In this document: one piece after another, positions 76 through 20,197 of the stretch
Position numbering within the stretch: the stretch's first letter is position 1
How the letters are laid out: each line of letters opens with the position of its first letter
IMG/VR virus record: IMGVR_UViG_2541047960_000002
Strand: one strand, 5' to 3'
Length of the DNA stretch: 20,197 nucleotides
Source of the DNA: a virus
Lineage: Duplodnaviria; Heunggongvirae; Uroviricota; Caudoviricetes
Translations under genes and position numbers: made by a program
The notes under the pieces: generated by a model
The model's input: the letters and a program-made list of their open reading frames with translations, nothing else
Databases searched by the model: none
What the model was told of the DNA's origin: nothing

Positions 76-84
76 ATCCACTCC

Positions 85-113
85 ACAAAAAAGCCCGCCT
101 GAACCGGCGGGCT
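85..113 (-). terminator. Rho-independent terminator downstream of lom
   Basis: Minus strand reads AGCCCGCC-ggttca-GGCGGGCT followed by TTTTTTGTGG: an 8-bp GC-rich stem, 6-nt loop and T-tract, 27 nt after the lom stop. Confidence 0.6.
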
Positions 114-139
114 GTCATAACACTGTGTTACCTGGCTAA

Positions 140-739: not shown

Positions 740-761
740 AATTACCTCTCGCTTTTCTGCA

Positions 762-787
762 ATAAAAAAGGCGCCATTTCTGGCGCC
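762..787 (-). terminator. Rho-independent terminator between J and lom
   Basis: Minus strand reads GGCGCCA-gaaa-TGGCGCC followed by TTTTTTATT: a perfect 7-bp stem, 4-nt loop and T-tract immediately after the J stop. Confidence 0.6.
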
Positions 788-806
788 CGTATTGGGGTTA
801 TAAAAT

Positions 807-4505: not shown

Positions 4506-4565
4506 TCCTCACGCTCCATAAACGACAAAACCGCCAGCAGGCGGTTTCACATAAAACATTTTGCA

Positions 4566-5213
4566 TCAGCGACCAATCACCACAACCTGACCACCGTCAC
4601 CTTCGTCTGCCGTGCTGATCTCCTGAGATACCACCCGCGACCCCACACGCATTTCACCGTACAGAACAGGCAAAACATTGCCCTGAGCAACCATGTTATC
4701 CAGTGACGAGAAATAGGTGTTCTGCTTACCGTTATCCGTGCTGGTCGCTGTGGGCGTCCGGGCTTTCGGTGCCAGCATCTGGGCCACACCGCCCAGGATC
4801 ATACTGGCTCCTGCCGCATACATGCCCGATAAAGCCGCAGCACCCAGCCAGCCTGCAGGGTTCCACCATGCCACCGCAATCAGCGCCGCCCCCAGCACAG
4901 CCTGAAATACGCCGCCACTTTTAGCCCCCGCCAGGCGCGGTACGATGTGGATCACGGCACCATTTGCCAGCGGCTCATTAAGACGGGCAGATAATTCGTT
5001 TTCGCCTGCATCACGCCCGGCAATACGCACCTGATACCAGCCGTCGCTCAGTTTCTGACGAAACGCCGGGAGCTGTGTGGCCAGTGCCCGGATGGCTTCA
5101 GCCCCCGTTTTCACACGAAGGTCGATACGGCGGCCAAATCGTTGTAAATCCCCGTAAAGGCAGATGCGCGCCATGCCCGGTGACGCCAGAGGGAGTGTGT
5201 GCGTCGCTGCCAT
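4566..5213 (-). CDS. I: Tail assembly protein I
   Basis: MAATHTLPLASPGMARICLYGDLQRFGRRIDL matches the recalled lambda gpI N-terminus; ATG start; overlaps the 3' end of K as in lambda. Confidence 0.9.
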   Translation of the reverse strand: MAATHTLPLASPGMARICLYGDLQRFGRRIDLRVKTGAEAIRALATQLPAFRQKLSDGWYQVRIAGRDAGENELSARLNEPLANGAVIHIVPRLAGAKSGGVFQAVLGAALIAVAWWNPAGWLGAAALSGMYAAGASMILGGVAQMLAPKARTPTATSTDNGKQNTYFSSLDNMVAQGNVLPVLYGEMRVGSRVVSQEISTADEGDGGQVVVIGR

Positions 5214-5854
5214 TTGTCGGTATACCTCTCTCGTTTGCTCAGTTGTTCAGGAATATGGTGCAGCAGCTCGCCGTCACCACAGTAAATGGCGGCGTGATTC
5301 GGCACCGATGAACCAAAACAGCACAGCAGCACATCGCCCGGCTGCGCCGCTGACAACGGCACCTGATACAGCCCCGTTGCCTCCAGATTATCCAGATAGA
5401 GATTCTGACCGTGACGCCACCAGTCATCCTCACGATGAAAATCCGGCATCTCAATCCCCGCCAGATGGTATGCATCCCGGAACAGCGTGTAACAGTCCGT
5501 CACCCCGTGCTCAAAGCGCCGCCCGGTAAGATGTGGCACACAGCGGAACTTGTGAATCGCCCCGCGGCAGACCAGCCACCACGGCAAATCACTCTGCACC
5601 TGCAGCCGCCGATCGGCCTCACTCAGCCAGGGCAGACCACCGGGGTGACTGTGGACCAGCGCCACAATCTCACCCTGCATTTCTGCCCGCAGCCAGTCCT
5701 CCGGAGCCATCCGGAAATACGCCTCCGGCTCACCGGAGATATTCACGCAGGGAAAATATCTTTCCCCTTCCGGCGTTCTCACCACGAAGCCGCACGACTC
5801 CGCTGGCGCACATCGCCGGGCGTGCGCCAGAATCGCTGATTCTGTCTGTGTCAT
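5111..5854 (-). CDS. K: Tail assembly protein K (called by similarity to lambda gpK; the JAB/MPN plus NlpC/P60 two-domain description is recalled family knowledge)
   Basis: Start placed at the internal ATG (MTQTESAILAHARRCAPAESCGFVV) that matches the recalled lambda K start and lies 4 nt after the L stop; the track ORF extends 14 codons further upstream into L. Confidence 0.88.
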   Translation of the reverse strand: MTQTESAILAHARRCAPAESCGFVVRTPEGERYFPCVNISGEPEAYFRMAPEDWLRAEMQGEIVALVHSHPGGLPWLSEADRRLQVQSDLPWWLVCRGAIHKFRCVPHLTGRRFEHGVTDCYTLFRDAYHLAGIEMPDFHREDDWWRHGQNLYLDNLEATGLYQVPLSAAQPGDVLLCCFGSSVPNHAAIYCGDGELLHHIPEQLSKRERYTDKWQRRTHSLWRHRAWRASAFTGIYNDLAAVSTFV

Positions 5855-5858
5855 GGGA

Positions 5859-6557
5859 TTACTGCGAAAGTTTGTTAATGGAAAGGAAGCCGCCAAAGTT
5901 GCCGACGTTATTGCGAAACTTACAGCCGCTCAGGCATTTGCTGCATTTATCCTTCGTGATATCGGACGTCGGCTGGTCATATTCATCCGCGACCGCCGGA
6001 CCGCTATAACCGCACTCATCACCGCGATAGGTCCAGGTGCAGGTGTTGGCCAGCATGATGCGCCCCGGAAAAACAGCACCATCCGTTTCCGTCGGCGTGG
6101 ACAGTACAAAAGAGGCACTCACCGCGCTCAGTTCGCTGCACTGCTCGATGCGCCAGCGGCTGATCACCTCCTGCTCTGGATCGGCTTCGCTGTTTCCGTT
6201 GACGAAGTTCACCACATCCAGAAAACGGGCGTAAACCTTACGCCTGACCACCGTTCCGCCGACCAGACTCTGCAGGTCTTCCGCCATCCCGGTGACCATG
6301 CCGTGCAGATTAGAGACTTTCAGCGTTGGCCTTGCACTGGCTCCTTTGCCGTTCATCTCAAATCCACTTCCCTGAATGGGATAGGCCTGATACTGCCGCC
6401 CCTGCCAGGTGACTGGTTCACCTTTTTCGTTCTGCTCATTACAGAAGAAATAACGATCTCCGCCGACCTCTGTCAGATCAATTTCCCAGAGCACGACCAG
6501 CGCGGATTGCTCCGTTTTAGTGCACTCATTGAGTGTTTCCTGCTGTATATCCTGCAT
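5859..6557 (-). CDS. L: Minor tail protein L (tail tip; Cys-rich C-terminus)
   Basis: 232 aa, the same length as lambda gpL; C-terminal cysteine cluster (CTWTYRGDECGY ... KCSKCLSGCKF); its ATG overlaps the M stop by 1 nt (TGATG). Confidence 0.9.
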   Translation of the reverse strand: MQDIQQETLNECTKTEQSALVVLWEIDLTEVGGDRYFFCNEQNEKGEPVTWQGRQYQAYPIQGSGFEMNGKGASARPTLKVSNLHGMVTGMAEDLQSLVGGTVVRRKVYARFLDVVNFVNGNSEADPEQEVISRWRIEQCSELSAVSASFVLSTPTETDGAVFPGRIMLANTCTWTYRGDECGYSGPAVADEYDQPTSDITKDKCSKCLSGCKFRNNVGNFGGFLSINKLSQ

Positions 6558-6898
6558 CAGTGAGTGACCTCTTCAAAGGTACAGTTAAAATCGGTATACA
6601 TGGCATTATCCGAAATGCTCCACTCCCTGCAGACAACCCGGACAGTCCTGTTGTGTTTTGGCGGACGCCACAAAAAAGCACGAACCCCGGCATGACGGGA
6701 TAAAAAACTGTCCAGCGCGGCACGGGAATATTCATCCGTGACACGAAATACCGGTTTAAACGTTTTCAGATCTGCATTCAGACCACCAGCCCGTCGCTGT
6801 TCATATCCGTCACCGAACTTTACCGTAATAACAGATGGCTTTCGTGTCGTCTCCATCCCCTCGCGGGGGATCCAGTTAAAAACTTCAGACTCAGGCAC
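6557..6898 (-). CDS. M: Minor tail protein M
   Basis: Contains the lambda gpM-like motif FGDGYEQRRAGGLNADLKTF; start assigned to a GTG preceded by GGAGG at about 8 nt spacing and overlapping the tape measure stop. An internal ATG at 6856 is the alternative start. Confidence 0.8.
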   Translation of the reverse strand: MPESEVFNWIPREGMETTRKPSVITVKFGDGYEQRRAGGLNADLKTFKPVFRVTDEYSRAALDSFLSRHAGVRAFLWRPPKHNRTVRVVCREWSISDNAMYTDFNCTFEEVTH

Positions 6899-9800
6899 TG
6901 CATAATCCTCCGTCCCGACGTGATGACTGCATAATTGACACAACCCTGCTGTCGATCAGATCCACCAGTCCCCTGGCTGAGCGCGCATCTATCTCGCCAT
7001 TGCTCCCTTGATTCTGAATGCTGATGTGATACACGGGAGAATAAACAAATCCACCGCCACCATTCACATTTCCAATGGCCCTGACCCCAAGAGAGCCGTC
7101 CGCTGCCCGTGTCAGTGGCATGATTGCTTCAGGCCCGGCCTCGCCCATCAGCCCGGCACCTTTCGCAAAAGCAAAATACGTCGGGGTATCCACAATGGTG
7201 TTACTGTAAGCACTCAGATTTGCCGATGTATAAACACCACCTTTTGCGTTTGCCACTGCACCGGAAAGCCAGTCGCCGACTGTACCAAGCCATCCTCCGG
7301 CACCGGACATGCTTTTGGAAAGTGACTTCAGCCCGTTAACGATGGCAGCGTTCATCAGAATTTTTGAAACTTCCTGGAGAATTGAACTCCCCCAGTTTCT
7401 CCAGTCCACAACATTTCCGGCCAGTGCATCGGAAATATTTGATACCAGCCCGTCCATAGTGGAAACGACAGCATCTGCCGCCTGCGAAGCATAATCGGTG
7501 GCACTGTCTGCCCAGTTCGTCAGTCCCTCCTGGAGTCCGGCATTCCAGTTACTGCGTAAAGCATCAGCCTTTGCATAATAATCCTGCTGATCGCTGAGAC
7601 GCTCTTCCAGATATTTTTCATTCAGAGATTTTTCCTGTTTCCACAGGGCTTCTTCAATTTCTCCGGCCTGATACTGTCTCAGTAGCTCGTTATTTTTCTG
7701 CTCAAACTCCTGCCGGATGCTCCACATTTCCTGAAGTCGTTCACGCATCCGTGAGCCTTCACCATATCCCAGTAACTGAGCCTCATTTGATGCTCTGACA
7801 CTGGCATTACTGTCCGCCAGACTGCTCTCATACGCAGCAAGCTGCTCACGAATCTTTTTCTGGTCGATGAGTGCTGCATTCTGCAAAAGCGTTTTTTTCT
7901 GCGCTTCTGACAGGGTTGATAATTCGCCCTGGCTGACCTGATATTTCATCTTAGCCAGTTCAGTATTCTGCCCTGCCAGTGCTATTTGCTCTTTTTGCTG
8001 TTTAATCAGTTGCTTATAAGTATCTTCTATTTTTTCCGCTTCGGTCTTTTTATGCGCTTTGGGTTTATTTGCCTGGTTATTTCGCCATGCATCCAGTGAG
8101 TTATTTATATAATTCAGTCTTGCTGTCTGATACGCCTCTCCCACAAAGCCGAGATCATCCGCAGCATAACCCAGGCGGGCACGCTCACGAGCTTCCCCCT
8201 TCAGGCGGGACAGAGCCAGTTCGCGCTCGCTGTTATTCAGTGCGGTCTGCTGTTTATCATCCAGGGTTGCCTGTGGTAGCCGTAACGGTACATTCACCAG
8301 CCCCTGTCGCTGCTGAAGTAATTCATTACCGAGCCCGAGAAGGCGATTAAACTCGGTATGCTGCCCATTCATGATCAACAGGGACTGATACGCTTTGTTT
8401 TGTTCCGCTGCCTGTTGACGGATCAACGCCACCCGTCGCTCCTCCAGCCCGGCAAGCACATCCTGAATGGATTGCGCTTTGCCCTGCATTTGAGTGAGGC
8501 GAGACTGTTCAACTGCCAGTTGATTTGTTGCTTCTGCAAGCCCTTCTGTGACAGTTTTTACCGACGTCATGTGGTTAATCATAAAACCGTTATCGGTTGT
8601 CCAGCCCGGGTTTGCCAGCACATACTGATAGCCAGCAATTTTTTCCTGTAAGGATTTAATCTTACTTTTCTGCTCGTCAATTAACCTGTTTTGCTCCTTC
8701 AGTGCCTGTCGCGTCTTTTCCTCATTATCTGACGCTTCAGGAAGCGACATTGCCGACGTTTTCTGGCGAATTTCGTCGATTGTTGCGGCATACTGTCGTG
8801 CAGATTCTCTGGCCTGCTCCTGATTCTGATACATCGTGTACCAGGCCGCAGCCCCCAGCATGACGAGTCCCGGCACACCACCAACCAGCCCCAGCGCGCC
8901 ACTTAATAAACGACTCCCCACTGACGTAACATTATTCAGCGTTGTCTGTGCCGCTGTTCTGGCCGCAATATTACGGGTAAGTGACACCTGGGCAGCTGTC
9001 AGCTTCGCTTCTGCTGCGGCCTGCCTTTCGGTACCGCGAGCAGCAACAACCGCCTGTTGCGCACGATAAACCGCCGCACGCGCCCTGGCGGTTGCTATCT
9101 GTGTCCCCCGAAGTTGCACTTCAGCAAGAGCCACTTCGTTTCTGGCTGCAGTAATTAATCCGGCAGTTGCAGATCCAGCAGACGACGCCATATTGCCAAA
9201 ATATCGGGCTACCCCGACGGCAACCAGAGCACCAGCAGCGGTTGCCACGGTGTCAATATTGCCTGCAATACCATTCAGCACACCGGAGAGCGTCTTCGTC
9301 ACTCCGCTTGCCTCGTTCGCACCACCAACCCAGGCCATAAAGGCGTTTTCAACTTTGGTTGCAGAGGATGAAACCGTATCAGGCATTGCTGCATATTCAT
9401 CACGCAACGCCCCAAGCTGACTAATCAGTGCAGGAACAACCTTATCAGCGGTCAGTTTTCCGTTATCCGCCATGGCCTTCAGATCCTTACGGGCAACCCC
9501 CATTCCCGCAGCCAGCGCACGAATAACACGATCGCCGTTCTCATTCACCGAGTTAAACTCTTCACCGCGCAGCACTCCCTGCGCCAGTGCCTGACTGAAC
9601 TGCGTGATCACCGAACTGGCTTCTGCTGTACTGGCACCGGATAATTTCAGGCCCGTGGAGATCGCCTCGGTGACTTTCAGTACCTCCTCAGAACTGTAAC
9701 CATACTCCCGCATGGAAGCTGCAGAACGGGCAAAAAGGCTGGCGTTATCAGAAAACGCCGTCCCCGTTCTCTGGCTGATCGCCATTAATTCACGCTGTGA

Positions 9801-10136
9801 TGACTGAAAATCATCACTGGACTGTGAGGCCTGCTTCAGACGGGCATTTACTGAATTCCACTCATCGGCGAGAGAAATAAGATGACCGGTAGCAAAAGCC
9901 CCGGCAAATGCCCCCGCCATGTTCAGTGCCGAAGATTTAGCTGTATTTATCTGATCCGTCACTTCTGCCAGTGCACGCCGCATTTCACGGGATGCAGCAG
10001 CGGACTGTCGGCCTCCGTTCTGCATGGTACGGTAGTAATCCTGCCCCATACGCGAAGCCCGGGAGATCTCTGACTGGAATGACCGGGAATTTGCCGAGAT
10101 TTTAATAATCAGTTCACGTAATGTCGCCACACTCAT
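6891..10136 (-). CDS. Tail tape measure protein (lambda H analogue, 1081 aa)
   Basis: Very long Ala/Gln-rich ORF with extensive predicted helical and coiled-coil sequence, located between the G/GT chaperone genes and M; ATG start with GGAG. Confidence 0.92.
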   Translation of the reverse strand: MSVATLRELIIKISANSRSFQSEISRASRMGQDYYRTMQNGGRQSAAASREMRRALAEVTDQINTAKSSALNMAGAFAGAFATGHLISLADEWNSVNARLKQASQSSDDFQSSQRELMAISQRTGTAFSDNASLFARSAASMREYGYSSEEVLKVTEAISTGLKLSGASTAEASSVITQFSQALAQGVLRGEEFNSVNENGDRVIRALAAGMGVARKDLKAMADNGKLTADKVVPALISQLGALRDEYAAMPDTVSSSATKVENAFMAWVGGANEASGVTKTLSGVLNGIAGNIDTVATAAGALVAVGVARYFGNMASSAGSATAGLITAARNEVALAEVQLRGTQIATARARAAVYRAQQAVVAARGTERQAAAEAKLTAAQVSLTRNIAARTAAQTTLNNVTSVGSRLLSGALGLVGGVPGLVMLGAAAWYTMYQNQEQARESARQYAATIDEIRQKTSAMSLPEASDNEEKTRQALKEQNRLIDEQKSKIKSLQEKIAGYQYVLANPGWTTDNGFMINHMTSVKTVTEGLAEATNQLAVEQSRLTQMQGKAQSIQDVLAGLEERRVALIRQQAAEQNKAYQSLLIMNGQHTEFNRLLGLGNELLQQRQGLVNVPLRLPQATLDDKQQTALNNSERELALSRLKGEARERARLGYAADDLGFVGEAYQTARLNYINNSLDAWRNNQANKPKAHKKTEAEKIEDTYKQLIKQQKEQIALAGQNTELAKMKYQVSQGELSTLSEAQKKTLLQNAALIDQKKIREQLAAYESSLADSNASVRASNEAQLLGYGEGSRMRERLQEMWSIRQEFEQKNNELLRQYQAGEIEEALWKQEKSLNEKYLEERLSDQQDYYAKADALRSNWNAGLQEGLTNWADSATDYASQAADAVVSTMDGLVSNISDALAGNVVDWRNWGSSILQEVSKILMNAAIVNGLKSLSKSMSGAGGWLGTVGDWLSGAVANAKGGVYTSANLSAYSNTIVDTPTYFAFAKGAGLMGEAGPEAIMPLTRAADGSLGVRAIGNVNGGGGFVYSPVYHISIQNQGSNGEIDARSARGLVDLIDSRVVSIMQSSRRDGGLCSA

Positions 10137-10144
10137 TCTCCGGA

Positions 10145-10168
10145 CGAAAAAAAACCGCCGAAGCGGTT
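10145..10168 (-). terminator. Rho-independent terminator between the GT chaperone and the tape measure gene
   Basis: Minus strand reads AACCGC-ttcg-GCGGTT followed by TTTTTTTT: a 6-bp stem with a UUCG tetraloop and T-tract, lying between the T stop (10177) and the tape measure Shine-Dalgarno and ATG. Confidence 0.55.
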
Positions 10169-10176
10169 ATGTTGAC

Positions 10177-10850
10177 TCACTGAGACACTATTAAAAGCGC
10201 GTTTTCCAGTCCAGCAAATGGATCTGATACGCCTTCTGTCTGCTCCTTCTCCCACTGAAGAAGCGCATCATTCAGTGGCACTTTGACCCCCTGCGCACCG
10301 TAAACAGCTGAAACAATCTGGGCAGCCCGGATATCAGCCCGTTCGTCCCCCAGCGGGCTGAACCTGTCAAATTCTGCCCACATCATGATTTCTGATGCGG
10401 ACATTTCCCGGCGTAACTCTGACAATGTGCGCCCCATCCTGAGCGCCAGCATCATCAGAAAACGCATCCCCGGAAGCGCTACTTTTTTTTAACCTCGCCG
10501 GCATCACTGATTAGTTCCAGAGACTGCCGAAGAAGCCGCGCATGCACCGGGCCATACACGGCAATCACCTGTTCACGATCATCCTCTGAAAATACAGGTT
10601 GCAGTCCGGTATCACACAGAACATCGATGAACAGTTCAACATCCGCTTCCAGATTTCGGCGGGCGCGCTCCGCAACGGATAACGGTGTCTCATCATCTTT
10701 TGCTTTAACGATCTCCTGCCAGCGCAACCAGGCTTCTGCAGAAGGTTCCCGTAATACAACCGTTGCCCCTTCCCATTCAGGCACATCAACAGTTTTATGG
10801 CGAAACCCCGACATCGTTGCCAGTGCCAGATTACGGATATTTTTAGTCAT
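10177..10850 (-). CDS. Tail assembly chaperone GT fusion made by programmed -1 ribosomal frameshift (lambda gpGT analogue)
   Basis: The -1 frame is open across the 3' end of G; reading from the slippery site gives ...KKK-VALPG-MRFLMMLALRMGRTLSEL..., which joins the 96-aa track ORF 10177..10467. Confidence 0.75.
10479..10850 (-). CDS. Tail assembly chaperone (lambda gpG analogue)
   Basis: Small acidic ORF immediately upstream of the tape measure gene, ending AAA AAA AAG TAG; start placed at an ATG preceded by GAGGA at 9 nt (MTKNIRNL...). An ATG at 10865 overlapping the major tail stop is the alternative. Confidence 0.8.
   Translation of the reverse strand: MTKNIRNLALATMSGFRHKTVDVPEWEGATVVLREPSAEAWLRWQEIVKAKDDETPLSVAERARRNLEADVELFIDVLCDTGLQPVFSEDDREQVIAVYGPVHARLLRQSLELISDAGEVKKK
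10482..10488 (-). promoter_or_regulatory. Slippery heptamer A_AAA_AAG for the G/GT -1 frameshift
   Basis: Minus strand GTT AAA AAA AAG TAG at the end of G; A AAA AAG is the heptamer used for -1 frameshifting in E. coli dnaX. Confidence 0.7.
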
Positions 10851-10864
10851 CACATCTATCCTCA

Positions 10865-11569
10865 TTAACTGACGGTAACAGTGCAGGAAGTAGAGGTCAC
10901 TTTGTTAACCGGGCTTGCTGAATCAGAAATCTCGCAGGTATATGCACCCGCATCACCGGATACTGCCGATGCCTTACTGAACGTTGCCGCCGTCTGTCCG
11001 GAAACAGGAGAACCACCTTTCTTCCAGACATAAGAATAAGGCGGCACACCACCCGCAGCCTCAACCGCCATTTCAAGTTTCGATCCGGAAGCAACCCGCA
11101 GCGTGCTTTTTAAATCGACCTTCACTTTCAGCGGCTCTGTCGTCAGCACAGGTTTACCTTTCAGGCGCAGAGAAAACGTTGCAGCCACAACACCATTGGT
11201 TCCTGCAGACCAGGTATGCTGACGCACCTCTGCCATAAAGGTAAATCCGTTGCCTGACGGAAAAATAACTTTAAAGCCATACGTGGTGTCATTGTCATAG
11301 GCACTGCGCAACGCGTTCTGGGCAGCATTGAGGTAAAAGTTGCCTGACATGGAAATCTCTGAAGCAGCACCAAGGCCGTTAATATTTTCCTGCTCAACAG
11401 AACACAGCGTGGTGACATCAATATCCTGCTTTTGTCCTGCAGTAAACTGCACCTCTTTGATTGTACAGCTCAGGCCAAGATAGCTGGCAGAATCCAGGGT
11501 TTCTGCTGTTACCGGTGCAGACGAAATCATAATTTTCGTCAGTTGCGAACGCTCAAAATTAGAGGACAT
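10865..11569 (-). CDS. Major tail protein with C-terminal Ig-like (Big_2-type) domain
   Basis: Position between the tail terminator gene and G/GT; Ig-like C-terminal segment (VPPYSYVWKKGGSPVSGQTAATFSKASAVSGDAGAYTCEISD). Start placed at ATG MSSNFERSQ with AGGAG at 6 nt; an in-frame ATG at 11620 with GAGG is the alternative, but the sequence between them forms a terminator-like hairpin. Confidence 0.8.
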   Translation of the reverse strand: MSSNFERSQLTKIMISSAPVTAETLDSASYLGLSCTIKEVQFTAGQKQDIDVTTLCSVEQENINGLGAASEISMSGNFYLNAAQNALRSAYDNDTTYGFKVIFPSGNGFTFMAEVRQHTWSAGTNGVVAATFSLRLKGKPVLTTEPLKVKVDLKSTLRVASGSKLEMAVEAAGGVPPYSYVWKKGGSPVSGQTAATFSKASAVSGDAGAYTCEISDSASPVNKVTSTSCTVTVS

Positions 11570-11581
11570 ACTCGTCTCCTG

Positions 11582-11607
11582 AAAATAAAAAACCCGCCAG
11601 CGGCGGG
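11582..11607 (-). terminator. Terminator-like hairpin and T-tract immediately upstream of the major tail protein ribosome-binding site
   Basis: Minus strand reads CCCGCC-gct-GGCGGG followed by TTTTTTATTTT and then AGGAG and the ATG. Confidence 0.45.
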
Positions 11608-11628
11608 TGGGTAAAATCATTAACGACC

Positions 11629-11973
11629 TCAGGCTATTACCTGAAATTCAAGCGTGGCTCTGCTCAGACGGGAGTCAGGATCATACCCCTGCGTTTTAGA
11701 AATAACGGAGGGTGCCAGTTTCCTTACTGCATCAAGCGCCTGCTCACGAATATCATCTGCGTCATCAGGTACTGTCGCCCAGACATCGATCTGCACGGTA
11801 ATTCTGGATTCAGCCTGCCCATCAAGCACATCAGATGCCGTGTCAGACACCACAGAAAACACCAGCCACGGCGGAGATACCGCAGGCTTTCCCTCCGTCA
11901 GCGGGACCACATAAGGATAAACCTGTCCTCCGGCCAGCTGAGACAACAGGGAATACAGTGTGCCCTCCCTCAT
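11629..11973 (-). CDS. Tail terminator / tail completion protein (lambda gpU analogue; putative)
   Basis: 114-aa ORF with ATG start and GAGG Shine-Dalgarno, overlapping the upstream gene stop (ATGA); assigned by its position just before the major tail gene. Weak family assignment. Confidence 0.6.
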   Translation of the reverse strand: MREGTLYSLLSQLAGGQVYPYVVPLTEGKPAVSPPWLVFSVVSDTASDVLDGQAESRITVQIDVWATVPDDADDIREQALDAVRKLAPSVISKTQGYDPDSRLSRATLEFQVIA

Positions 11974-12416
11974 TTACTTAAGACCTCATCAATAGCCTGA
12001 TTCATTCGCTGTATGGCAACCTGCGCCGCCAGCTCCTCTGTCGTATCGAAAGCCGGGCGAATGAATGGATGCGCGGGCATGTTTATCGTTCCCAGCTCCA
12101 CAAAGCGCCAGTAAAATGCATTTCGGGGATCGCTGGCTTTCATGCTGTTATCACTGTTTCCGGTTCGCAGGTTCCGTCCGCGAATGTGGACACCCGAGAT
12201 AATTTCCCCCCGACGCTTTGAACGCTGAGTGAGAACAACCACATTTTTCTTCAGTTTCCCGGTTCGCTCCGGCGCACGTTCAACAACTGCATCCCGCATA
12301 ACTTCAGCACCGGCACGGGTGGCATCGCGCAGAACCTTATTGTTTTCTGCCCTGCTGAGCGTCTCCAGATCCCGTGCAATATCCGCCAGGCCGGAAAAAT
12401 CAAGACTGAAATCCAT
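11970..12416 (-). CDS. HK97 gp10-family head-tail joining (neck) protein
   Basis: About 148 aa with motifs typical of the gp10 family (N-terminal GLADIARDLETL, C-terminal FYWRFVELGT); ATG overlaps the adaptor stop (TGATG). Confidence 0.75.
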   Translation of the reverse strand: MDFSLDFSGLADIARDLETLSRAENNKVLRDATRAGAEVMRDAVVERAPERTGKLKKNVVVLTQRSKRRGEIISGVHIRGRNLRTGNSDNSMKASDPRNAFYWRFVELGTINMPAHPFIRPAFDTTEELAAQVAIQRMNQAIDEVLSK

Positions 12417-12754
12417 CACACATTCCCCTTCAGGCTGCAGAGTATTTCAAGCCGGGTAGCGCGTGCATCCGGTATTGGTGGACCTTCTATACCCAGAATG
12501 GCCCCTTTAAATGCACCGGTCAGCACTTTCAGACGTGAAGTCGCTGTCACATCGCGCCGGAATCTCATCCAGACTCTGACCGTAGCCTGAGCGGTTTCTG
12601 CTCCGCCTGAGATTATCTCCCTCCCGCTGATACCCTTAACTTCTGCCCATACGGTAGCTCCCTCCGTCACCGTCTCCACCGGATGCCCTGACGGAGAGCG
12701 GGCGGTGGTGACATTCAGAATAATTACGCGATCACGTAATCTGCCCGCCTGCAT
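12416..12754 (-). CDS. Head-tail adaptor / head closure protein (Phage_H_T_join, SPP1 gp16-like)
   Basis: 112 aa, begins MQAGRLRDRVIIL, with AGGAGG Shine-Dalgarno; size and position typical of the family. Confidence 0.75.
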   Translation of the reverse strand: MQAGRLRDRVIILNVTTARSPSGHPVETVTEGATVWAEVKGISGREIISGGAETAQATVRVWMRFRRDVTATSRLKVLTGAFKGAILGIEGPPIPDARATRLEILCSLKGNV

Positions 12755-12762
12755 GTCTCCTC

Positions 12763-13080
12763 CTACAAAGGAATAAAACGATAAGGCTCCAGCAGAGAAG
12801 AAAAACCAAACGGGACTGGTGCCTTGCTGACATCTGAGGAATTTTCCCGGTTTTCGTACCAGTGCCCGACCAGCAACATGAGCGCCAGCAAAACATCATC
12901 AGCTATAAGCACCCCTTCAGGATCACCTTCCGGCACCGTCTCCTCATAAAGCTTACGGTTGATAAAATTTTCTGCCTTGCGGCAGGCAGCCCGGAAATAC
13001 AGCATCAGTAACTCATCATCAGTTGCATCATCTGTATCAATACGGCACTGCGCCCTGAGTTTTTCCACTATTGCTGCCAT
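12763..13080 (-). CDS. Head-tail connector / DNA-packaging protein (HK97 gp6-like)
   Basis: Start placed at the internal ATG (MAAIVEKLRAQ...) preceded by AGGAG; the track ORF extends upstream across the terminator and 100 nt into the capsid gene, which is an ORF-calling artifact. Confidence 0.75.
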   Translation of the reverse strand: MAAIVEKLRAQCRIDTDDATDDELLMLYFRAACRKAENFINRKLYEETVPEGDPEGVLIADDVLLALMLLVGHWYENRENSSDVSKAPVPFGFSSLLEPYRFIPL

Positions 13081-13113
13081 CAGAAACTCCTGCCCGCAAC
13101 ACTGTGCGGGCAT

Positions 13114-13136
13114 AAAAAAACCGCGTCGGCGCGGTC
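13114..13136 (-). terminator. Rho-independent terminator immediately downstream of the major capsid gene
   Basis: Minus strand reads ACCGCG-ccga-CGCGGT followed by TTTTTTT, 20 nt after the capsid TAA; a second hairpin (CCCGCA...TGCGGG) follows, before the connector ribosome-binding site. Confidence 0.6.
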
Positions 13137-13156
13137 TGTAACTGAACAACGAGTGG

Positions 13157-14374
13157 TTATTTGCCAGTGAGCGCCTTGATGGCTGCCACATCTTCCAGCA
13201 CACAGTCAAAACGATGGAAAGCCAGAAATGCCACCTGATCAAACTCAGCATAACGCTCAACCAGACGTTTCAGTTCCATATAAGTAACGCGGCGAATGAT
13301 AAAGCGGTTGAAATCCCCCAGGAAAATGAATTTTTTTCCGGTACCAATCCCGTCAATAGCCTGATCAATAACATAAGGGATCCCCAGCACAGTAGCCGGC
13401 GTACCGCCTGCAATATCCGGCAGCCATAACGGGCGTTTCTGCCCATCCTCCATCTCTTCAATAGTCTGCAATGTGGCATCATTGAATGCCCAGCGGTATT
13501 TCGGCCCACCACGATATGCCGGATCAATGGCATGTTTCAGGGCATTCATTTCTTTCCAGGTGAAAGCGGCAGAGGCTGCAGTCTGGATGGTTCCCGTCAC
13601 CGACGCTGCCAGCCCTTTTGGCTGTAACGGTGATCCCGTTCCGGTCCCCTGAACCAGATATTTTGCCTCTCCACGACCAATACGCTGGGCAATACGGTTT
13701 GCCAGATAAGATTCAATATCCACCCCACTGTCCTGGAGCAGCTCATTGGACACACGAATTATTTTTGATGACAGCTTTTTAGCCCCCAGAATAGCGGTCC
13801 CGAACGTCACATCCTGTTCCGTTGCGGCTGTATTTTCCGCCAGCAGTTCGCCCTCTTCAGTCGTGCCATCAGACGTTGACCAGGTGATATCCTGCCCGGT
13901 TGATGTGGTCAGAAGTTGCGCCACACTGGCAATCCCGCCATAAGCCTTCATGGTGTCAATGATTTTGTTACGCATCTGCGTGGGCACCGTATATCCGCCC
14001 TGAGAATCCGTTGTTACACTCTGAGCCCGCAGTTCACGCATCAGATTACGCTCTTCAGCATTCAGTTCTGCAAATCCGGCACGCAGAAAACGGTTAAATG
14101 CCGCAGCGCGCTTCTCTTCCACCGCCTTTTTCCCGTTCTCCGCCTCATTATTCTGGCGCTCTTCCGGCCCGGACTCATCCACATATGCCTGATCCTGACG
14201 GCGCAACTCTTCTTCACGGGCGATTTGCTCATCCAGCGCATCCAGCTCAGCTTTCGCCCTGTTCCACTCTGCCCGTTGCTCATCAGTCCATGCGTTATCA
14301 CCAATTTTTTCATGCAGTGCACGCATATCCTTTGCAATGGTGTTTCGTTTTTGCTTCATCTCATGAAGTTTCAT
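13157..14374 (-). CDS. Major capsid protein, HK97 fold, with N-terminal delta (scaffold) domain
   Basis: 405 aa; charged coiled-coil N-terminal ~100 aa (EQRAEWNRAKAELDALDEQIAREEELRRQ) typical of an HK97 gp5 delta domain; directly follows the prohead protease; ATG with AGGA. Confidence 0.93.
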   Translation of the reverse strand: MKLHEMKQKRNTIAKDMRALHEKIGDNAWTDEQRAEWNRAKAELDALDEQIAREEELRRQDQAYVDESGPEERQNNEAENGKKAVEEKRAAAFNRFLRAGFAELNAEERNLMRELRAQSVTTDSQGGYTVPTQMRNKIIDTMKAYGGIASVAQLLTTSTGQDITWSTSDGTTEEGELLAENTAATEQDVTFGTAILGAKKLSSKIIRVSNELLQDSGVDIESYLANRIAQRIGRGEAKYLVQGTGTGSPLQPKGLAASVTGTIQTAASAAFTWKEMNALKHAIDPAYRGGPKYRWAFNDATLQTIEEMEDGQKRPLWLPDIAGGTPATVLGIPYVIDQAIDGIGTGKKFIFLGDFNRFIIRRVTYMELKRLVERYAEFDQVAFLAFHRFDCVLEDVAAIKALTGK

Positions 14375-14388
14375 CGTCAGTAGTATCC

Positions 14389-14988
14389 TTATGCATTAAG
14401 AAGGGTCAAAAGACGCTCACGCGCCATTCGTTCGTTAACAGCTTTCTTCAGCGCACCACTCGCCCGCGCTTCCTGCCAGGCTTTCATTGAGCGGACACCA
14501 GAGTCTGCGTCCTGATAGGCCGGATATGTCACCGGGCTGACGTCATACAGACGAGAAATGCGCGTGATTTCCCGGATAACAATCCCCTCGTCGTCTTCAT
14601 ACCAGCTCTCTCCGTCACGGGCGACACGAAACGCGAACGAGGACTGATTAATGTCACCACGCAACATTGGAGACAGCACCAGGTCACAAATAGTCGGAGT
14701 ATCCGGTGCAACAATGTCATAACGTAAACCGCGTTCATCCACCGACAATGACAACGTGCCGGCAGAACTTCGTCCGAGAATGAAATTAGGATCATGATTA
14801 AACAAGCCACGTACATCATCATTCAGTACATCATCAAAAGCCCCCGGCTTGATGATTTCACGAAGTCCCCACAGAGGTTCTGAACGACTGTTAAATACCG
14901 AGCCATACCCCAGAATGTGGGTCGGGGCATTATCATATTGTTCCGCCCGCACCTCCCCGCTGTAACAGCGCGTTTCACGGTCATTCAT
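14389..14988 (-). CDS. Prohead maturation protease (HK97 gp4 / S78 family)
   Basis: 199 aa between portal and capsid genes; ATG overlaps the portal stop (ATGAATGA). Confidence 0.88.
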   Translation of the reverse strand: MNDRETRCYSGEVRAEQYDNAPTHILGYGSVFNSRSEPLWGLREIIKPGAFDDVLNDDVRGLFNHDPNFILGRSSAGTLSLSVDERGLRYDIVAPDTPTICDLVLSPMLRGDINQSSFAFRVARDGESWYEDDEGIVIREITRISRLYDVSPVTYPAYQDADSGVRSMKAWQEARASGALKKAVNERMARERLLTLLNA

Positions 14989-16207
14989 CGTTCTTTTCCT
15001 CTTTGCCTTTCGTATCTTTAAAGTTATTCAACGGATTTGCTGCATTTACGCTGACCAGCATTTCATCCAGACCGTCAACCGGGTTCATATCCTCAAATGC
15101 CCTGGCTTCATTCCGACTCATCCAGCCATCTGTAATGGCAAAGTGATAGAACTGCGCACGCTCCTGTGGGGTCCCACGGAGCAACCCCGTGAGGTTGAAA
15201 CGAACGTAATACCCGGCAGCCCGTTCTGTACGGGTAAACAGGCGACGGTTAAGCTCCTGCTCCCAGTTCGCAACCCAGGGCATCATCGTGTAGCGAACAA
15301 ACTGAATCGCCTGCTGCGTAATATTCGAAAATGTGGCTTTTTCCAGGTCATTAATCATGTGCGCCGGGACATTAAAAATCCCGGCAATCATCGACCGGTT
15401 CAGCTTGGTCATATCAATGATCTGAGCATCCACCGGAGAAACTGTCAGAGCGCGGTAATCCAGTTGCGCAGGCAGCAACATGGTTTTATTTTCCTGGCTG
15501 CGAAGCGCTGTCACCGCCCGCTGCCACATATTCTTGAGCCTGCCCCAGCTTTGTTCGTTCAGTTCATTTTTCACAGAAATAATACCGGCAGGACGGGCAT
15601 TACCGTTAAAAAAGGCGCTGGTATACTGCTGGCCACTCATTCCCATACCAATGGTTTCAGCATGCTGCATGATCGGGCTCAGTCCCATTTTCTGATTGTT
15701 TCCCAGCGCCCTGATATGGATCATGTCGTCCGGACTTACCGCAAATGCACCCTCTTCGTTATACACCCCGTAAGTATGACGCCCACCGGTGTTAAGTAAC
15801 GTGGTTTCCCATGGCATACAGCATTCAAGGCTGGTAACCTCTCCACGACGATTACGTTTTACCCACGTATAACCATTGCCCCACCCCAGCACATGACGCT
15901 GCTTCAGTTCCCGCCACTTATAGCTGGTCTGCCAGGCATTAGGTTCATCATGAACGAGCCAGAACAACGGATGATCGCGTGCCGGCTGAACATGCTCATT
16001 CGTTTTTCGCATCACATGCAGGGGCATCTGAGCCACACTGGATGAAATAACATAAATACAGGCATAGACAGCAGCCAGCTTCATGGATGTTTCCGGACTG
16101 ACATACACATCCCGGGCAAAAATATTATCCGTCTCAGCGGCCTCTCCGGTTACCGGAACCGAGGGATTTTCCAGAGGCTCACTGCGAAACAGAGCATCAA
16201 GAAGCAT
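14981..16207 (-). CDS. Portal protein (HK97 family)
   Basis: 408 aa, ATG start, positioned between the large terminase and the prohead protease. Confidence 0.93.
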   Translation of the reverse strand: MLLDALFRSEPLENPSVPVTGEAAETDNIFARDVYVSPETSMKLAAVYACIYVISSSVAQMPLHVMRKTNEHVQPARDHPLFWLVHDEPNAWQTSYKWRELKQRHVLGWGNGYTWVKRNRRGEVTSLECCMPWETTLLNTGGRHTYGVYNEEGAFAVSPDDMIHIRALGNNQKMGLSPIMQHAETIGMGMSGQQYTSAFFNGNARPAGIISVKNELNEQSWGRLKNMWQRAVTALRSQENKTMLLPAQLDYRALTVSPVDAQIIDMTKLNRSMIAGIFNVPAHMINDLEKATFSNITQQAIQFVRYTMMPWVANWEQELNRRLFTRTERAAGYYVRFNLTGLLRGTPQERAQFYHFAITDGWMSRNEARAFEDMNPVDGLDEMLVSVNAANPLNNFKDTKGKEEKNDE

Positions 16208-16337
16208 GTTTTCTCCTCATGGACACCACCAGTGCATAAAGCAGCAACAAACAGCCCGACAGCATCAGAGACGCTGGCAGACCTGCATACAGATAAACGC
16301 CAGCAGTGAGCAAACCGAAACCGATCAGCCCGGTCAT
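16197..16337 (-). CDS. Hypothetical small membrane protein (46 aa) between large terminase and portal; candidate only
   Basis: Hand-translated ATG-initiated ORF: MTGLIGFGLLTAGVYLYAGLPASLMLSGCLLLLYALVVSMRRKHAS, with two hydrophobic stretches and a basic C-terminus; fills an otherwise unexplained 147-nt gap and its stop overlaps the portal ATG. No clear Shine-Dalgarno; below the ORF track length cutoff. Confidence 0.3.
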   Translation of the reverse strand: MTGLIGFGLLTAGVYLYAGLPASLMLSGCLLLLYALVVSMRRKHAS

Positions 16338-16354
16338 ATCAGTAATAAGCTGTT

Positions 16355-18112
16355 TCACAGAATTAACAGGTCCTCATCAGGATCAAGCGTGGACAGAAAG
16401 TCATTCACGCCCCCTCCATTTACCAGAAAGCGGCTCATGGCTGTAAAAAGCGCAACAGGGCCGTCGATTTTGGCTTCCGGCGTGGATTTATTCGGGAAGA
16501 TGTTGTCGTTTTTGTCCGGTTTTACAGTAACGTTAGACATCATCCAGTTCATGACCGGATGATTGCTGTGATGGAAACGCCCGGCATAAACCAGTGATTC
16601 CGTTTCCTTCATGGCCTCTGACAGATTGCGGACCGTCTGCGGAACCTCCACCAGCGGTATCCCTTCTTCAGCCAGTGCCAGGCTGAACTGCATTGCGCTC
16701 CACGGGTCAAATCCCAGTTCCCTGAGGTTTTCACCGCCAATCCATTCCAGTAAGTCACTTTTTATCTGAGCATGATCGATAACATCACCATCCGTCAGGA
16801 TGAGCTTATCCATCTCCGCCCACTTCCGGTAAAGTTCTGCCTGCTGCCGCGAGCATCGTTCCAGCCGTCCTTCCGGAAGCCAGAATTTAAAATCAGCATG
16901 AACATGTCCGTTATCGGTTCGCCAGAGTTTTGCCGCCGCACAGATATCAATCTTATGAGCAAGGTCGACGCCGACCCACATGGGATATGTTTTCAGCTCA
17001 TGTTGTGGAGCAATGTATTCGCACTTCTCCCACTTAATCATATCCATCCAGGCAGATTCGGCAGTGACCCACACATTCATGTGTTTGGTAAAAAAATTCA
17101 CCCGCGCAGAGACCTGCTCCTTCGCTTTTTTCGCCAGACGACGCAGATCATCCCAGCGTTTACAGATGCCCAGGCCAGGATTCGCTTTCTGCCAGACCGT
17201 TTCATCAAACGGATCATCTCCCTCATCAAGCGTGTAAATGATCGCAAAGTAAGAGTCGTCTTTTACAGCGCCCTCCACGTCGCTGTTATAGCCTCGCAAT
17301 ACCTTGATGGCGTAATCACGCTGCTCGTAACAAATCCCTTCCTTGTTAAAGCCAGCCGTGGTGATACCAAATAACAGGGACTGCAGACGGGCACCGGTTG
17401 CCGTTTCCAGAACGTCCCACACGTCGCGGGTTTTATGTGCATGCAGCTCATCAATAATGGCGCAGTGGATGTTCAGACCGTCCAGGTTGTTTGCATCCGA
17501 GGAAAGCGGTTCAAATTTTGATGCGCTCTGCTCCTGGTAAATCGCCAGCTTGTTGAAATCAAACAACCGCCCGAGTGTCGACCGGGCTTTTCTGACCATA
17601 TTTTTGGCGTCTTCAAACACGATTCTGGCCTGGTCACGCGTGGTTGCGGCTGAATACACCTCAGCTCCGCCTTCACTATCTGCCCCCGTCATATACAGGC
17701 CGATACCCGATGACAGTGTTGATTTTGCGTTTTTACGGGCGACTTCGTTGTACGCCGTCCGGAACCGGCGCACCATCACCGGACGTCCGCTGCCATCGCT
17801 GCGCATGACAACTTCCCCGGTTTCTTCATTGACCAGCGGAATGACAAAACCAAAAATATTAATGAGGATAAATACATGCCAGTCCATCAACTCAATGGGC
17901 TGGCCTGCCAGTGCCCCTTTTACATGAGGCACAAATTTGTAGAAATTCAGGATGTGCTGCGCACGGGGTTCACTGAAATAAATCCCCCGCTTTTCGCCGT
18001 ACTTCAGATCATCAAGAAAACGCTGGCAGGCCAGGCGGACAAATTCGCCAGCAACAATTTCTCCTGCAACAACACGTTCGGCGTAGCGGATCCCGTCAGC
18101 CACTTTTGCCAT
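16355..18112 (-). CDS. Terminase large subunit (Terminase_1 / HK97-type)
   Basis: 585 aa; ATG overlaps the small terminase stop (ATGA); followed by portal, protease and capsid genes in the HK97 order. Confidence 0.93.
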   Translation of the reverse strand: MAKVADGIRYAERVVAGEIVAGEFVRLACQRFLDDLKYGEKRGIYFSEPRAQHILNFYKFVPHVKGALAGQPIELMDWHVFILINIFGFVIPLVNEETGEVVMRSDGSGRPVMVRRFRTAYNEVARKNAKSTLSSGIGLYMTGADSEGGAEVYSAATTRDQARIVFEDAKNMVRKARSTLGRLFDFNKLAIYQEQSASKFEPLSSDANNLDGLNIHCAIIDELHAHKTRDVWDVLETATGARLQSLLFGITTAGFNKEGICYEQRDYAIKVLRGYNSDVEGAVKDDSYFAIIYTLDEGDDPFDETVWQKANPGLGICKRWDDLRRLAKKAKEQVSARVNFFTKHMNVWVTAESAWMDMIKWEKCEYIAPQHELKTYPMWVGVDLAHKIDICAAAKLWRTDNGHVHADFKFWLPEGRLERCSRQQAELYRKWAEMDKLILTDGDVIDHAQIKSDLLEWIGGENLRELGFDPWSAMQFSLALAEEGIPLVEVPQTVRNLSEAMKETESLVYAGRFHHSNHPVMNWMMSNVTVKPDKNDNIFPNKSTPEAKIDGPVALFTAMSRFLVNGGGVNDFLSTLDPDEDLLIL

Positions 18113-18612
18113 CAGTCTCTCGCTTTTAAAAGCTCTGCCAGCGGATCAACATTATCCGGTCCGGCGGTATTTACTTTTGCCCGGCTTGCCGGTGACATAC
18201 CAAATTCTGCAAGCATCGCCCGGATCCGCTTCCAGGCATCCGCTTTCATCGCAGCAGCCGGGTGTGCCTTAATCAGCACATCACCGTTCTGCGTTTCCGA
18301 GCGGTAGGTGTACCCCTCAACATCGAGTGTTTCGCAGTGATGCCGGTATTCGGTATAGGCTTCCACCAGTAGCTCAAGCGCACGCGCATCAAGCTGAGAA
18401 ATGATCCCTTCCGCATTCAGCTCTTCCGCCATTCGCCTGAACCAGTACTTCCCCTGCGCCCCTAAATGTTGCGGAATTTTAGGGAGACCTTTTTCATCCT
18501 TTTTAGCGGTTTTTTTGAGGTCTTTAACTGGCCGCTTTGAGGGGTTGCCTCGTATCAAATGCAGGCGTGCGGGATTTTCGGGGGTCCAGACATAATCGGT
18601 TTTACCTATCAA
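18112..18612 (-). CDS. Terminase small subunit (P27 family)
   Basis: 166 aa with an N-terminal LIRGNPSKRP motif resembling the GNPGKRP signature of P27-family small terminases. The only in-frame start codons near the N-terminus are TTG (at 18612 and at codon 19), so the start is uncertain. Confidence 0.78.
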   Translation of the reverse strand: MIGKTDYVWTPENPARLHLIRGNPSKRPVKDLKKTAKKDEKGLPKIPQHLGAQGKYWFRRMAEELNAEGIISQLDARALELLVEAYTEYRHHCETLDVEGYTYRSETQNGDVLIKAHPAAAMKADAWKRIRAMLAEFGMSPASRAKVNTAGPDNVDPLAELLKARD

Positions 18613-18740
18613 TCATTTAATCACATTCCAAAAAAAAGTTTTCGAACCTGCGGCGATGCGAGGAAAGGTCAGGCGGCGGTACTGAGCAGCCAGGGTTGCA
18701 GAGATTTGACCCGCCCCTCCCCTGCAGATGGGAACTGTTA
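18613..18740. other. Intergenic region between HNH endonuclease and small terminase; candidate location of the cos packaging site
   Basis: 128-nt non-coding gap with GC-rich motifs (GGGGAGGGGCGGG, AGGCGGCGG) and an 8-T run on the minus strand; HNH-terminase pairing is typical of HK97-like cos phages. No exact lambda cosN (GGGCGGCGACCT) is present. Confidence 0.3.
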
Positions 18741-19091
18741 TCAATTGATGCGTTCGCGCGCTGTTTTTGCTTTATGACAGGGCCAGCACAGACTCTGCAG
18801 GTTACTGTCTGCATCTGTGCCACCATGAGCTTTCGGAATGATGTGGTCCACAGTTCTGGCTTCAACGGCTCTCCCATTGCGCAGGCAGTTCTGACACAGA
18901 TGATTATCACGCTTCAGTATGCGCGCACGTATGGCATCCCATTTCGAACCATAGCCACGCTGGTGGCGACTCAGTCCTCGTTGATGCTGTACCCATCCTT
19001 CGCCACGATGTTTATCGCAGTAACCAGAACTGTCTGTGGTTGTTCCTGCACATCCACGCTTACGGCAGGCACGTGGGATTAGTGATGGCAT
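18741..19091 (-). CDS. HNH endonuclease (terminase-associated)
   Basis: 116 aa with Cys-rich N-terminus (CRKRGCAGTTTDSSGYCDKH) and HNH motif (DHIIPKAHGGTDADSNLQSLCWPCH); ATG with GAGG; immediately upstream of the small terminase. Confidence 0.9.
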   Translation of the reverse strand: MPSLIPRACRKRGCAGTTTDSSGYCDKHRGEGWVQHQRGLSRHQRGYGSKWDAIRARILKRDNHLCQNCLRNGRAVEARTVDHIIPKAHGGTDADSNLQSLCWPCHKAKTARERIN

Positions 19092-19133
19092 AAATACCTC
19101 ATACCCTGCGAAATGTTTACCACGATAAAAAGG

Positions 19134-19598
19134 CTACTTAATGCACTGAGTGCGGATATACTCCTGTGCCCCTTCCAGTTGCATCTGCATCGTCATCAGC
19201 CGCTCTCTGAGGGTGAAATAATCCCGTTCAGCGGTGTCTTCCAGTCGGGGGCTGGTTGCATTATCCACGCCGGAGGCGGTGGTGGCTTCACGCACTGACT
19301 GACAGACTGCTTTGATGTGCAACCGACGACGACCAGCGGCAACATCAGCGCGCAGAGTTTCATTTTCAGCTTTCGCATTGGCTAATTCTCTCGAGTACTT
19401 TGCATCGAGCGCAGCAACATCACGCTGACGCTGCTGCATGTCAGCGATGGTGGCGATCGCCAGCTTCAGCTCACTGACTTTTTTATCACGCTGTTCTTTG
19501 TAGGCGATGGCGTTATCACGGTAATGATTGACCGCCCACGACAGGCAGACGATGATGCAGATAACCAGAGCATAAATAATCGCGGCGACTCTGCTCAC
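19134..19598 (-). CDS. Rz: i-spanin Rz
   Basis: N-terminal transmembrane segment ([20 protein letters not shown]) followed by charged coiled-coil sequence; contains an embedded Rz1 in another frame; start placed at a GTG overlapping the endolysin stop (GTGA), the track start being a TTG 5 codons upstream. Confidence 0.85.
19196..19378 (-). CDS. Rz1: o-spanin Rz1 (outer membrane lipoprotein), embedded in Rz in a different frame
   Basis: [60 protein letters not shown] closely matches recalled lambda Rz1: lipobox VVGC and a proline-rich stretch; ATG start. Confidence 0.88.
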
Positions 19599-19996
19599 TG
19601 ATCTATCCCCCAACAGGCTAATGCGCTTTCCTGGTCACGACGAATAACCTGTCCATAGCAGTTATTTGAACGTATGCGGCAATCGCGCCCACCATCTATT
19701 ATCCACCAGCGAATCGCCTCGCATGCGCCCTTACGATCACCGGCATTCAGCCGCTTATAAAACGTCGACGGAAAACACTTACCGGGGCCAATGTTATAGG
19801 GACAAAATGACGCGATACCCGCTTTTTGTGGTTCAGTCAGTGGTACTTTAATATTGCGCTCCACCCATGCCAGCGCCTTATCACGCTCAATGGCGTTGAC
19901 CTGGTCGCATTTTTCCTTCGACAGTTTCATACCGGGAAAAACGGGTTTTCCATCCACCATCGTGGCACCCCGACAGATGGTCCAGATGCCGGACCC
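19595..19996 (-). pseudogene. Endolysin (T4-type lysozyme, GH24; RrrD/P21 R-like), 5'-truncated by an IS insertion
   Basis: The C-terminal ~133 codons resemble the recalled RrrD/P21-type lysozyme (GIWTICRG...NIGPGKCFPSTFYKRLNAGDRKGACEAIRWW). Upstream of 19996 the reading frame runs into the IS terminal sequence, so the native N-terminus (membrane anchor and catalytic Glu/Asp region) is missing from this locus. Confidence 0.82.
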
Positions 19997-20197
19997 TGAA
20001 CCGCCCCGGGAATCCTGGAGACTAAACTTCCTGAGAAAGAGGTAAACAGGATGACTAAAAATACTCGTTTTTCCCCCGAAGTCCGTCAACGGGCAGTCCG
20101 TATGGTTCTGGAAAGTCAGGGCGAATATGACTCACAATGGGCGACAATTTGTTCCATTGCCCCAAAGATTGGCTGTACACCGGAGACTCTGCGTGTC
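19997..20197 (+). mobile_element. IS3-family insertion sequence (IS629-like), left end; continues past the window edge
   Basis: Terminal sequence TGAACCGCCCCGGGAATCCTGGAGACTAAACTTCC begins at 19997 with the TG typical of IS3-family inverted repeats, followed by an orfA-like gene; abrupt loss of endolysin homology at this point. Confidence 0.8.
20051..20197 (+). CDS. IS3-family transposase OrfA, N-terminal part (helix-turn-helix), partial
   Basis: ATG at 20051; translation [49 protein letters not shown] matches the recalled IS629/IS1203-type OrfA N-terminus. Truncated by the window, so absent from the ORF track. Confidence 0.8.

Follow-up and report, generated by a model that had tools for sequence, protein, structure and literature searches.

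Probable IS629 insertion in the endolysin gene of a lambdoid prophage of Escherichia coli UMEA 3899-1

Judging from the sequence on the two sides of a single junction, the endolysin gene of a lambdoid prophage in Escherichia coli UMEA 3899-1 has almost certainly been disabled by the insertion sequence IS629. We consider it very probable that IS629 (1,310 bp when complete) transposed into this gene and left the prophage with a lysis defect. The DNA analyzed here, which we call the window, is 20,197 nt long and corresponds to a complete contig in the draft assembly of E. coli UMEA 3899-1 (GCA_000461795.1, scaffold KE702678.1); it is identical to that scaffold. Both edges of the window are contig ends inside the scaffold, so features that run off an edge cannot be completed from this assembly. 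The prophage is lambdoid, with an HK97-type head and a lambda-type tail; its late genes are read from the minus strand, and at the right end of the window they abut the left end of the IS.

We located the junction by megablast of window positions 19100-20197 against 5,426 complete E. coli genomes. Positions 19100-19996 (query 1-897) are 100% identical to intact loci annotated "lysis protein" and "lysozyme", for example in E. coli 042, and in every such match the identity breaks off at 19996. The next base, 19997, aligns with the first base of the 1,310-bp mobile_element feature annotated "IS3 family IS629" in LC567824.1, the record of the Stx2a phage Stx2_499. The first-pass annotation of this DNA had proposed that endolysin homology ends exactly where an IS3-family terminal repeat begins, at 19997, and the megablast break and the annotated IS start agree with it to the base. 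Alignment with E. coli 042 shows the intact gene reading ...TAC CGC GAT and then GGG TCC GGC... at this site, where the window reads ...CCCGGGGCGGTTCA and then GGG TCC GGC.... The boundary is unambiguous, since the intact gene and the IS carry different bases at the first position beyond it. The IS thus lies between codon 44, which encodes the catalytic Asp, and codon 45 of the 177-aa endolysin, that is, after nt 132. Chance cannot account for the matches of the junction, the IS and the remnant. One open reading frame runs across the boundary (164 aa, 19595-20089), fusing the end of the IS to the endolysin remnant; it is a mechanical reading frame with a TTG start inside the IS, its exact sequence is not on record, and we rejected it as a gene.

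The IS sequence at 19997-20197 (plus strand) is the left end of IS629, an element of the IS3 family, and represents the first 201 of its 1,310 bp: the left terminal inverted repeat (IRL, TGAACCGCCCCGGGAATCCTGGAGA...), the 5' untranslated region and the start of orfA, after which the element is cut by the contig end and scaffold gap. It matches the annotated IS629 of LC567824.1 at 198/201 nt (98.5%, E = 3e-96). Window 19997-20041 is identical throughout to the first 45 nt of that element, IRL included, and the terminal inverted repeat begins with 5'-TG, as the IS629 IRL does; in the reference element the first 25 positions of IRL and IRR agree at 23. The identity lies above the isoform-level threshold (>95%), the assessable part being 15% of the element. 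The orfA segment (20051-20197, plus strand) comprises the first 49 codons of the transposase gene, including the HTH_Tnp_1 region; all 49 residues agree with the annotated OrfA, the three nucleotide differences from the LC567824.1 element are all synonymous, and the fragment matches Pfam PF01527 with E = 2.9e-4. The call in the first-pass annotation, an IS3-family element resembling IS629, can therefore be sharpened to IS629 itself, on the LC567824.1 match, the identical IRL and the OrfA agreement.

Transcription of orfA heads away from what remains of the endolysin gene and is antisense to the late operon of the phage. Only its start was assembled; orfB and the frameshift site of this copy fall past the contig end. 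The full-length reference OrfB scores 315.7 bits against the NCBIfam IS3 transposase model (NF033516), above the cut-off of 160 bits. IS3-family elements move by a copy-out/paste-in route, using an OrfAB transposase made via a -1 frameshift. IS629, with its isoforms IS1203 and IS3411, is among the commonest insertion sequences of E. coli; we found the element in 3,644 of the 5,426 complete genomes (median, 3 copies), and other E. coli chromosomes and plasmids carry copies that match the 201 nt of the window at 100% identity.

On the other side of the junction lies the 3' remnant of the endolysin gene (19595-19996, minus strand), 133 codons and a stop, corresponding to codons 45-177 of a GH24 lysozyme of the P21 R/RrrD/RrrQ type that has 177 aa when intact. 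Over residues 45-177 the remnant shows 100% identity with the intact protein WP_000992099.1. It scores 71.8 bits against Pfam Phage_lysozyme (PF00959; cut-off 22.3), covering profile positions 16-125 of 125 only, and matches the endolysin family PHROG 7 with E = 1e-51. The intact allele matches the solved lysozymes P21 R (3hde/3hdf, E about 3e-16) and E. coli RrrD (4zpu), as well as another endolysin (7m5i), and in the alignment to P21 R (PDB 3hde) the residues E35, D44 and T50 fall at the same numbering. The pattern E-X8-D-X5-T is the catalytic triad of "true lysozymes", and SAR domains are rich in Ala and Gly (PMC9239132). The remnant starts at G45; it lacks E35 and D44, keeps T50 alone and so does not contain the triad. 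The sole hydrophobic stretch of the intact protein, at residues ~8-27 (GLSAAVLALIAVGAPAP...), is Ala/Gly-rich with a mean Kyte-Doolittle value of 1.9, and this weakly hydrophobic, N-terminal SAR-like segment lies wholly within the 44 missing codons and is absent from the remnant. Loss of the N-terminal membrane anchor and of the catalytic Glu/Asp region had both been anticipated in the first-pass annotation. The match to WP_000992099.1 and the hydropathy profile confirm the first, and for the second the alignment to the P21 R/RrrD type, which that annotation had suggested as a check, places E35 and D44 among the missing residues and T50 among those kept. We conclude that what is left in the window is a pseudogene fragment, by its residue content not a functional GH24 lysozyme.

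The public annotation of this locus, ERA39028.1 ("lysozyme [Escherichia coli UMEA 3899-1]"), corresponds to a 121-aa, ATG-initiated part of the remnant (window 19595-19960, minus strand). The label "lysozyme" on this entry is misleading, because the export segment is gone and only one catalytic residue of the three is left.

In intact relatives, the endolysin gene comes after the genes for a class II holin of 71 aa (PF04971) and for a member of the YdfR family, and Rz with an embedded Rz1 follows it. The cassette is of the P21 type, with a class II holin/pinholin, a lysozyme and Rz/Rz1; from homology, we infer SAR behaviour for the endolysin and pinholin behaviour for the holin. Both spanin genes are intact in the window. 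The Rz i-spanin gene (19134-19598, minus strand), which overlaps the endolysin stop codon, encodes 154 aa from its annotated start, with a PF03245 match of E = 7e-49 and 154/154 aa identical to WP_000091902.1. The 60-aa Rz1 o-spanin lipoprotein (19196-19378, minus strand) is encoded in the +1 frame inside Rz and matches PHROG 3198, "Rz-like spanin", with E = 4e-29. Of the four genes of the holin-endolysin-Rz/Rz1 cassette, then, not all are intact: the endolysin gene is disrupted, and the assembled part of the holin gene stops at codon 33.

The rest of the late operon (143-19091, minus strand) runs from the HNH gene to Lom at full length and with no internal stops, as assessed by tblastn and Pfam. 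The late genes comprise Rz, HNH, TerS (P27 family), TerL, a 53-aa ORF, portal, S78 protease, major capsid, connector and head-closure proteins, followed by gp10-like, gp17, an Ig-domain tail protein, tail tube, the G/T chaperones, tape measure, M, L, K, I, J and Lom. For comparison we used E. coli 20AR0300, the closest intact relative, which aligns in one piece with window 1-19996 at 99.0% identity. By tblastn, 22 annotated proteins taken from this relative are all present in the window at full length, with 96.7-100% identity and 0 stops, which bears out the earlier impression that everything downstream of the lesion (Rz/Rz1, HNH, terminases, head and tail genes) is intact.

The HNH endonuclease gene (18741-19091, minus strand) lies immediately upstream of the P27-family TerS gene (18112-18612, minus strand), which is followed by TerL; the HNH-TerS-TerL arrangement is typical of HK97-like cos-packaging phages. 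The mechanical ORF for TerS has a TTG start and 166 aa, versus 160 aa annotated in relatives. The head-closure ORF at 12416-12754 (minus strand) encodes 112 aa versus 102 aa annotated in the 99%-identical relative; 98 residues align, and there is no stop or frameshift, a pattern that by alignment indicates a small indel or a C-terminal difference. At the end of the tail chaperone gene G (window 10455-10500, minus strand) stands the slippery run GTT AAA AAA AAG TAG, the expected -1 frameshift site for a putative G-T fusion with the downstream T ORF (10177-10467). Of a tail-fibre gene (MAAVKISGVLKDGAGKPIQNCTIQL, phage_tail_N), window 1-75 (minus strand) contains the initial 25 codons; the left contig end cuts the gene, which resumes past the gap.

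The scaffold extends the view beyond the window on both sides. The left end adjoins a gap within the tail-fibre gene, and the right end, at 20197, adjoins a gap of 3,920 N. Past the right gap lies a 1.3-kb contig that ends in codon 33 of the holin gene and matches the intact holin to its last base, with no IS sequence. The 5' end of the holin gene is thus present on the same scaffold, upstream of the window and in the expected orientation and order. Further upstream, around the Q antiterminator and early region, the scaffold is interrupted twice more, by 1,015 N and by at least 1,850 N. The assembly thus contains neither the far end of the IS nor a target duplication, and it likewise lacks the endolysin gene's 132-bp 5' fragment, ydfR and the remainder of the holin gene. 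Additional defects could lie in the missing parts of the early region and of the lysis cassette, so the first-pass idea of a single lesion in an otherwise complete prophage goes further than the assembled sequence. A simple insertion would require the right gap to hold ~1,779 bp, namely the remaining 1,109 bp of IS629, 667 bp of phage sequence and 3 bp of duplicated target; the estimate of 3,920 exceeds this need by about 2.1 kb, and the excess could be an error in gap size, a second mobile element or other DNA.

Many other E. coli drafts end contigs at nt 134/135 of this same lysozyme gene, where there is a GGG/GGT polymorphism between co-resident prophage alleles, and these breaks account for 87 clustered peptides, 28-48 aa long, that bear the name "lysozyme, partial". 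This break lies 2-3 nt from the IS629 site described here and is unrelated to any IS. In the protein collection we also encountered the 45-aa upstream product that would be expected of the second junction (44 codons, a Gly from the GGG duplication and a TGA from the IS end). We rejected it as evidence for that junction because its contigs simply end at ...GATGG or ...GATGGT(TC), the assembly branch point, without IS sequence. The 98-aa product predicted for a 4-bp duplication was absent from the protein collection.

The reading we rate most likely is a simple insertion. IS629 would have entered the gene between codons 44 and 45, in the orientation that sets its transposase genes antisense to the late operon, and probably generated a 3-bp (GGG/CCC) or a 4-bp target duplication; the 5' fragment of the endolysin gene would lie within the unassembled gap. 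On the plus strand of the window, the far side is predicted to show the IRR of IS629 and, after it, CCC(A)TCGCGGTATGCC..., in which the duplicated bases lead into the 132-bp 5' fragment. In favor of such an insertion, the gap is large enough for the rest of the IS and the missing 667 bp, and the holin 5' end lies upstream in the same orientation; against it, only one IS end is assembled, and the gap is ~2.1 kb above the ~1,779 bp expected.

An insertion at this point would amount to a null endolysin allele. The remnant (residues 45-177) would be unable to give an exported, active muramidase because the SAR-type segment and the residues E35 and D44 are lost. On induction, particles would be assembled, the cell wall would not be degraded, the spanins would be unable to act and the virions would be trapped. 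A pinholin that still functions would depolarize and kill the cell on induction, so the lesion would block phage release rather than protect the host. The lysis-defective phenotype is what the gene content would predict.

IS629 lies physically between the late promoter side and the downstream late genes, as the first-pass annotation pointed out. In lambda, Q-modified RNA polymerase resists terminators. A polar effect of the IS on the late genes is doubtful, because lambdoid late transcription is Q-antiterminated and would be expected to read through terminators in a 1.3-kb element. A promoter and terminator scan of 18500-20197 returned nothing above the shuffled expectation.

The excess in the gap estimate bears on the possibility that the lysis cassette contains more than one mobile element or other inserted DNA, so that the endolysin hit would be one of several lesions and the phrase "single insertion" in the first-pass annotation would be wrong. 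We judge this rather unlikely. The roughly 2.1 kb beyond what a simple insertion needs and the contig break inside the holin gene both speak for it, and E. coli EPSSH018 provides a precedent for two IS3-family elements in one cassette: there, a complete 1,310-bp IS629 with a GTA duplication sits in ydfR, a different IS3-family element splits the holin gene, and the adjacent rrrQ lysozyme gene is intact. In UMEA 3899-1, however, the holin-side contig end carries no IS bases, compared with 201 bp of IS on the endolysin-side contig. Gap sizes in mate-pair scaffolds are estimates, and one extra 1.3-kb IS (about 3.1 kb in total) or two (about 4.4 kb) would fit the figure of 3,920 poorly. The more specific suggestion that about 2.1 kb of the 3.9-kb gap consists of another IS, a composite segment bounded by IS629 or some different cargo, inserted in the holin-ydfR-endolysin interval, is, in our view, unlikely; if true, the lysis cassette would have been remodelled and not merely interrupted.

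The visibility of only one junction would also be compatible with an IS629-associated deletion or rearrangement, in which the IS first inserted elsewhere in the cassette, or recombined with another copy, and DNA up to codon 45 was lost or inverted. Among IS629 sites in O157 genomes, a 3-4 bp duplication was found at 21/47, the other 26/47 being without one (PMC3271280). In E. coli O145:H28 RM13514, IS629 adjoins a lysozyme gene of which 99 nt at the 3' end are left; the element has no target duplication, and the genes on its far side, ren/ninB, are unrelated. This layout, which is kept in several O145 genomes, indicates an IS-associated deletion or rearrangement and shows that such events happen in this gene family. 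The assembly of the holin gene only to codon 33 could be read in the same way. Yet a deletion would need only about 1,109 bp in the gap, and the gap of 3,920 N exceeds even what a simple insertion calls for; the contig on the holin side has the order and orientation that one would expect; and the region, shared by co-resident prophages, is badly assembled in many drafts, so that no deletion is needed to account for the contig break. We therefore regard such an event as improbable. Had it occurred, the 5' part of the endolysin gene and possibly ydfR and the 3' part of the holin gene would be affected, and the prophage would lack more than endolysin integrity. It is highly improbable that the last 201 bases of the contig are misjoined and that the endolysin gene is intact in the real genome. 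This is a draft short-read assembly, IS629 is multi-copy in E. coli, and the junction occurs in no other public sequence searched, but the contig passes from endolysin to IS sequence precisely where the terminal repeat of the IS starts, as expected from transposition and not from a random chimera, and it is continuous through the junction.

A junction-centred BLAST gave no match to the junction in 5,426 complete E. coli genomes or 50,697 phage records; the partial hits were IS629 beside other lysozyme alleles at other positions. Exact-pattern scans of GTDB representative genomes, JGI metagenomes and IMG/VR found neither the observed junction nor the predicted second junction (GGCATACCGCGATGGG[T]TGAACCGCCCCGGG). 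Relative to the collections searched, the exact insertion site, after nt 132 of the UMEA 3899-1 allele, is the only new part, and it has no wider consequence.

Insertion sequences hitting prophages are a well-known, ordinary route of prophage decay, and the present case, a textbook one, has little meaning beyond UMEA 3899-1, for which we predict that the prophage would be unable to release particles on its own. In E. coli O157, 62% of IS629 copies lie in prophages or prophage-like elements (PMC3271280). IS629 is the main source of variation among Stx2a phages, and in type PST1-5 (E. coli O157:H7 PA45) a putative lysozyme gene is interrupted (PMC4587872). Our own comparisons added E. coli 14EC007, in which a 1,310-bp IS629-type element splits rrrQ with a TTG duplication and both gene halves are present, and Stx2_499, whose lysis cassette carries a complete 1,310-bp IS629 with a CTGG duplication. 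The presence of IS629 in prophages, including in the lysozyme gene, is a kind of event already known.

Set against the IS629 copies of Stx phages and O157:H7, the element in UMEA 3899-1 is alike in sequence over the assembled part (198/201 nt, the same IRL and the same OrfA N-terminus), and its prophage location is typical; unlike them, it is represented in the window by the left 15% only, and its insertion site occurs in no other sequence searched. With PST1-5 and 14EC007 it shares the disruption of the same class of prophage lysis gene by the same IS, and with 14EC007 also the orientation of the IS relative to the gene, with IRL beside the 3' remnant. Both differ in insertion position and host prophage, and neither junction matches that of the window: in 14EC007 the 5' fragment is 117 nt long and the duplication is TTG, while in UMEA 3899-1 the insertion point lies after nt 132. 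The closest known parallels to the intact gene are the SAR endolysins phage 21 R and E. coli RrrD (3hde, 3hdf, 4zpu), together with the S21 pinholin. The intact allele aligns with these endolysins over residues 31-174 with E35, D44 and T50 conserved, has an N-terminal Ala/Gly-rich hydrophobic segment, and is preceded by a class II holin and followed by Rz/Rz1. It is a distant relative of them (E about 1e-16) whose SAR behaviour is predicted from homology only, and the copy in the window, unlike R and RrrD, is a catalytically dead 3' fragment of such an enzyme.
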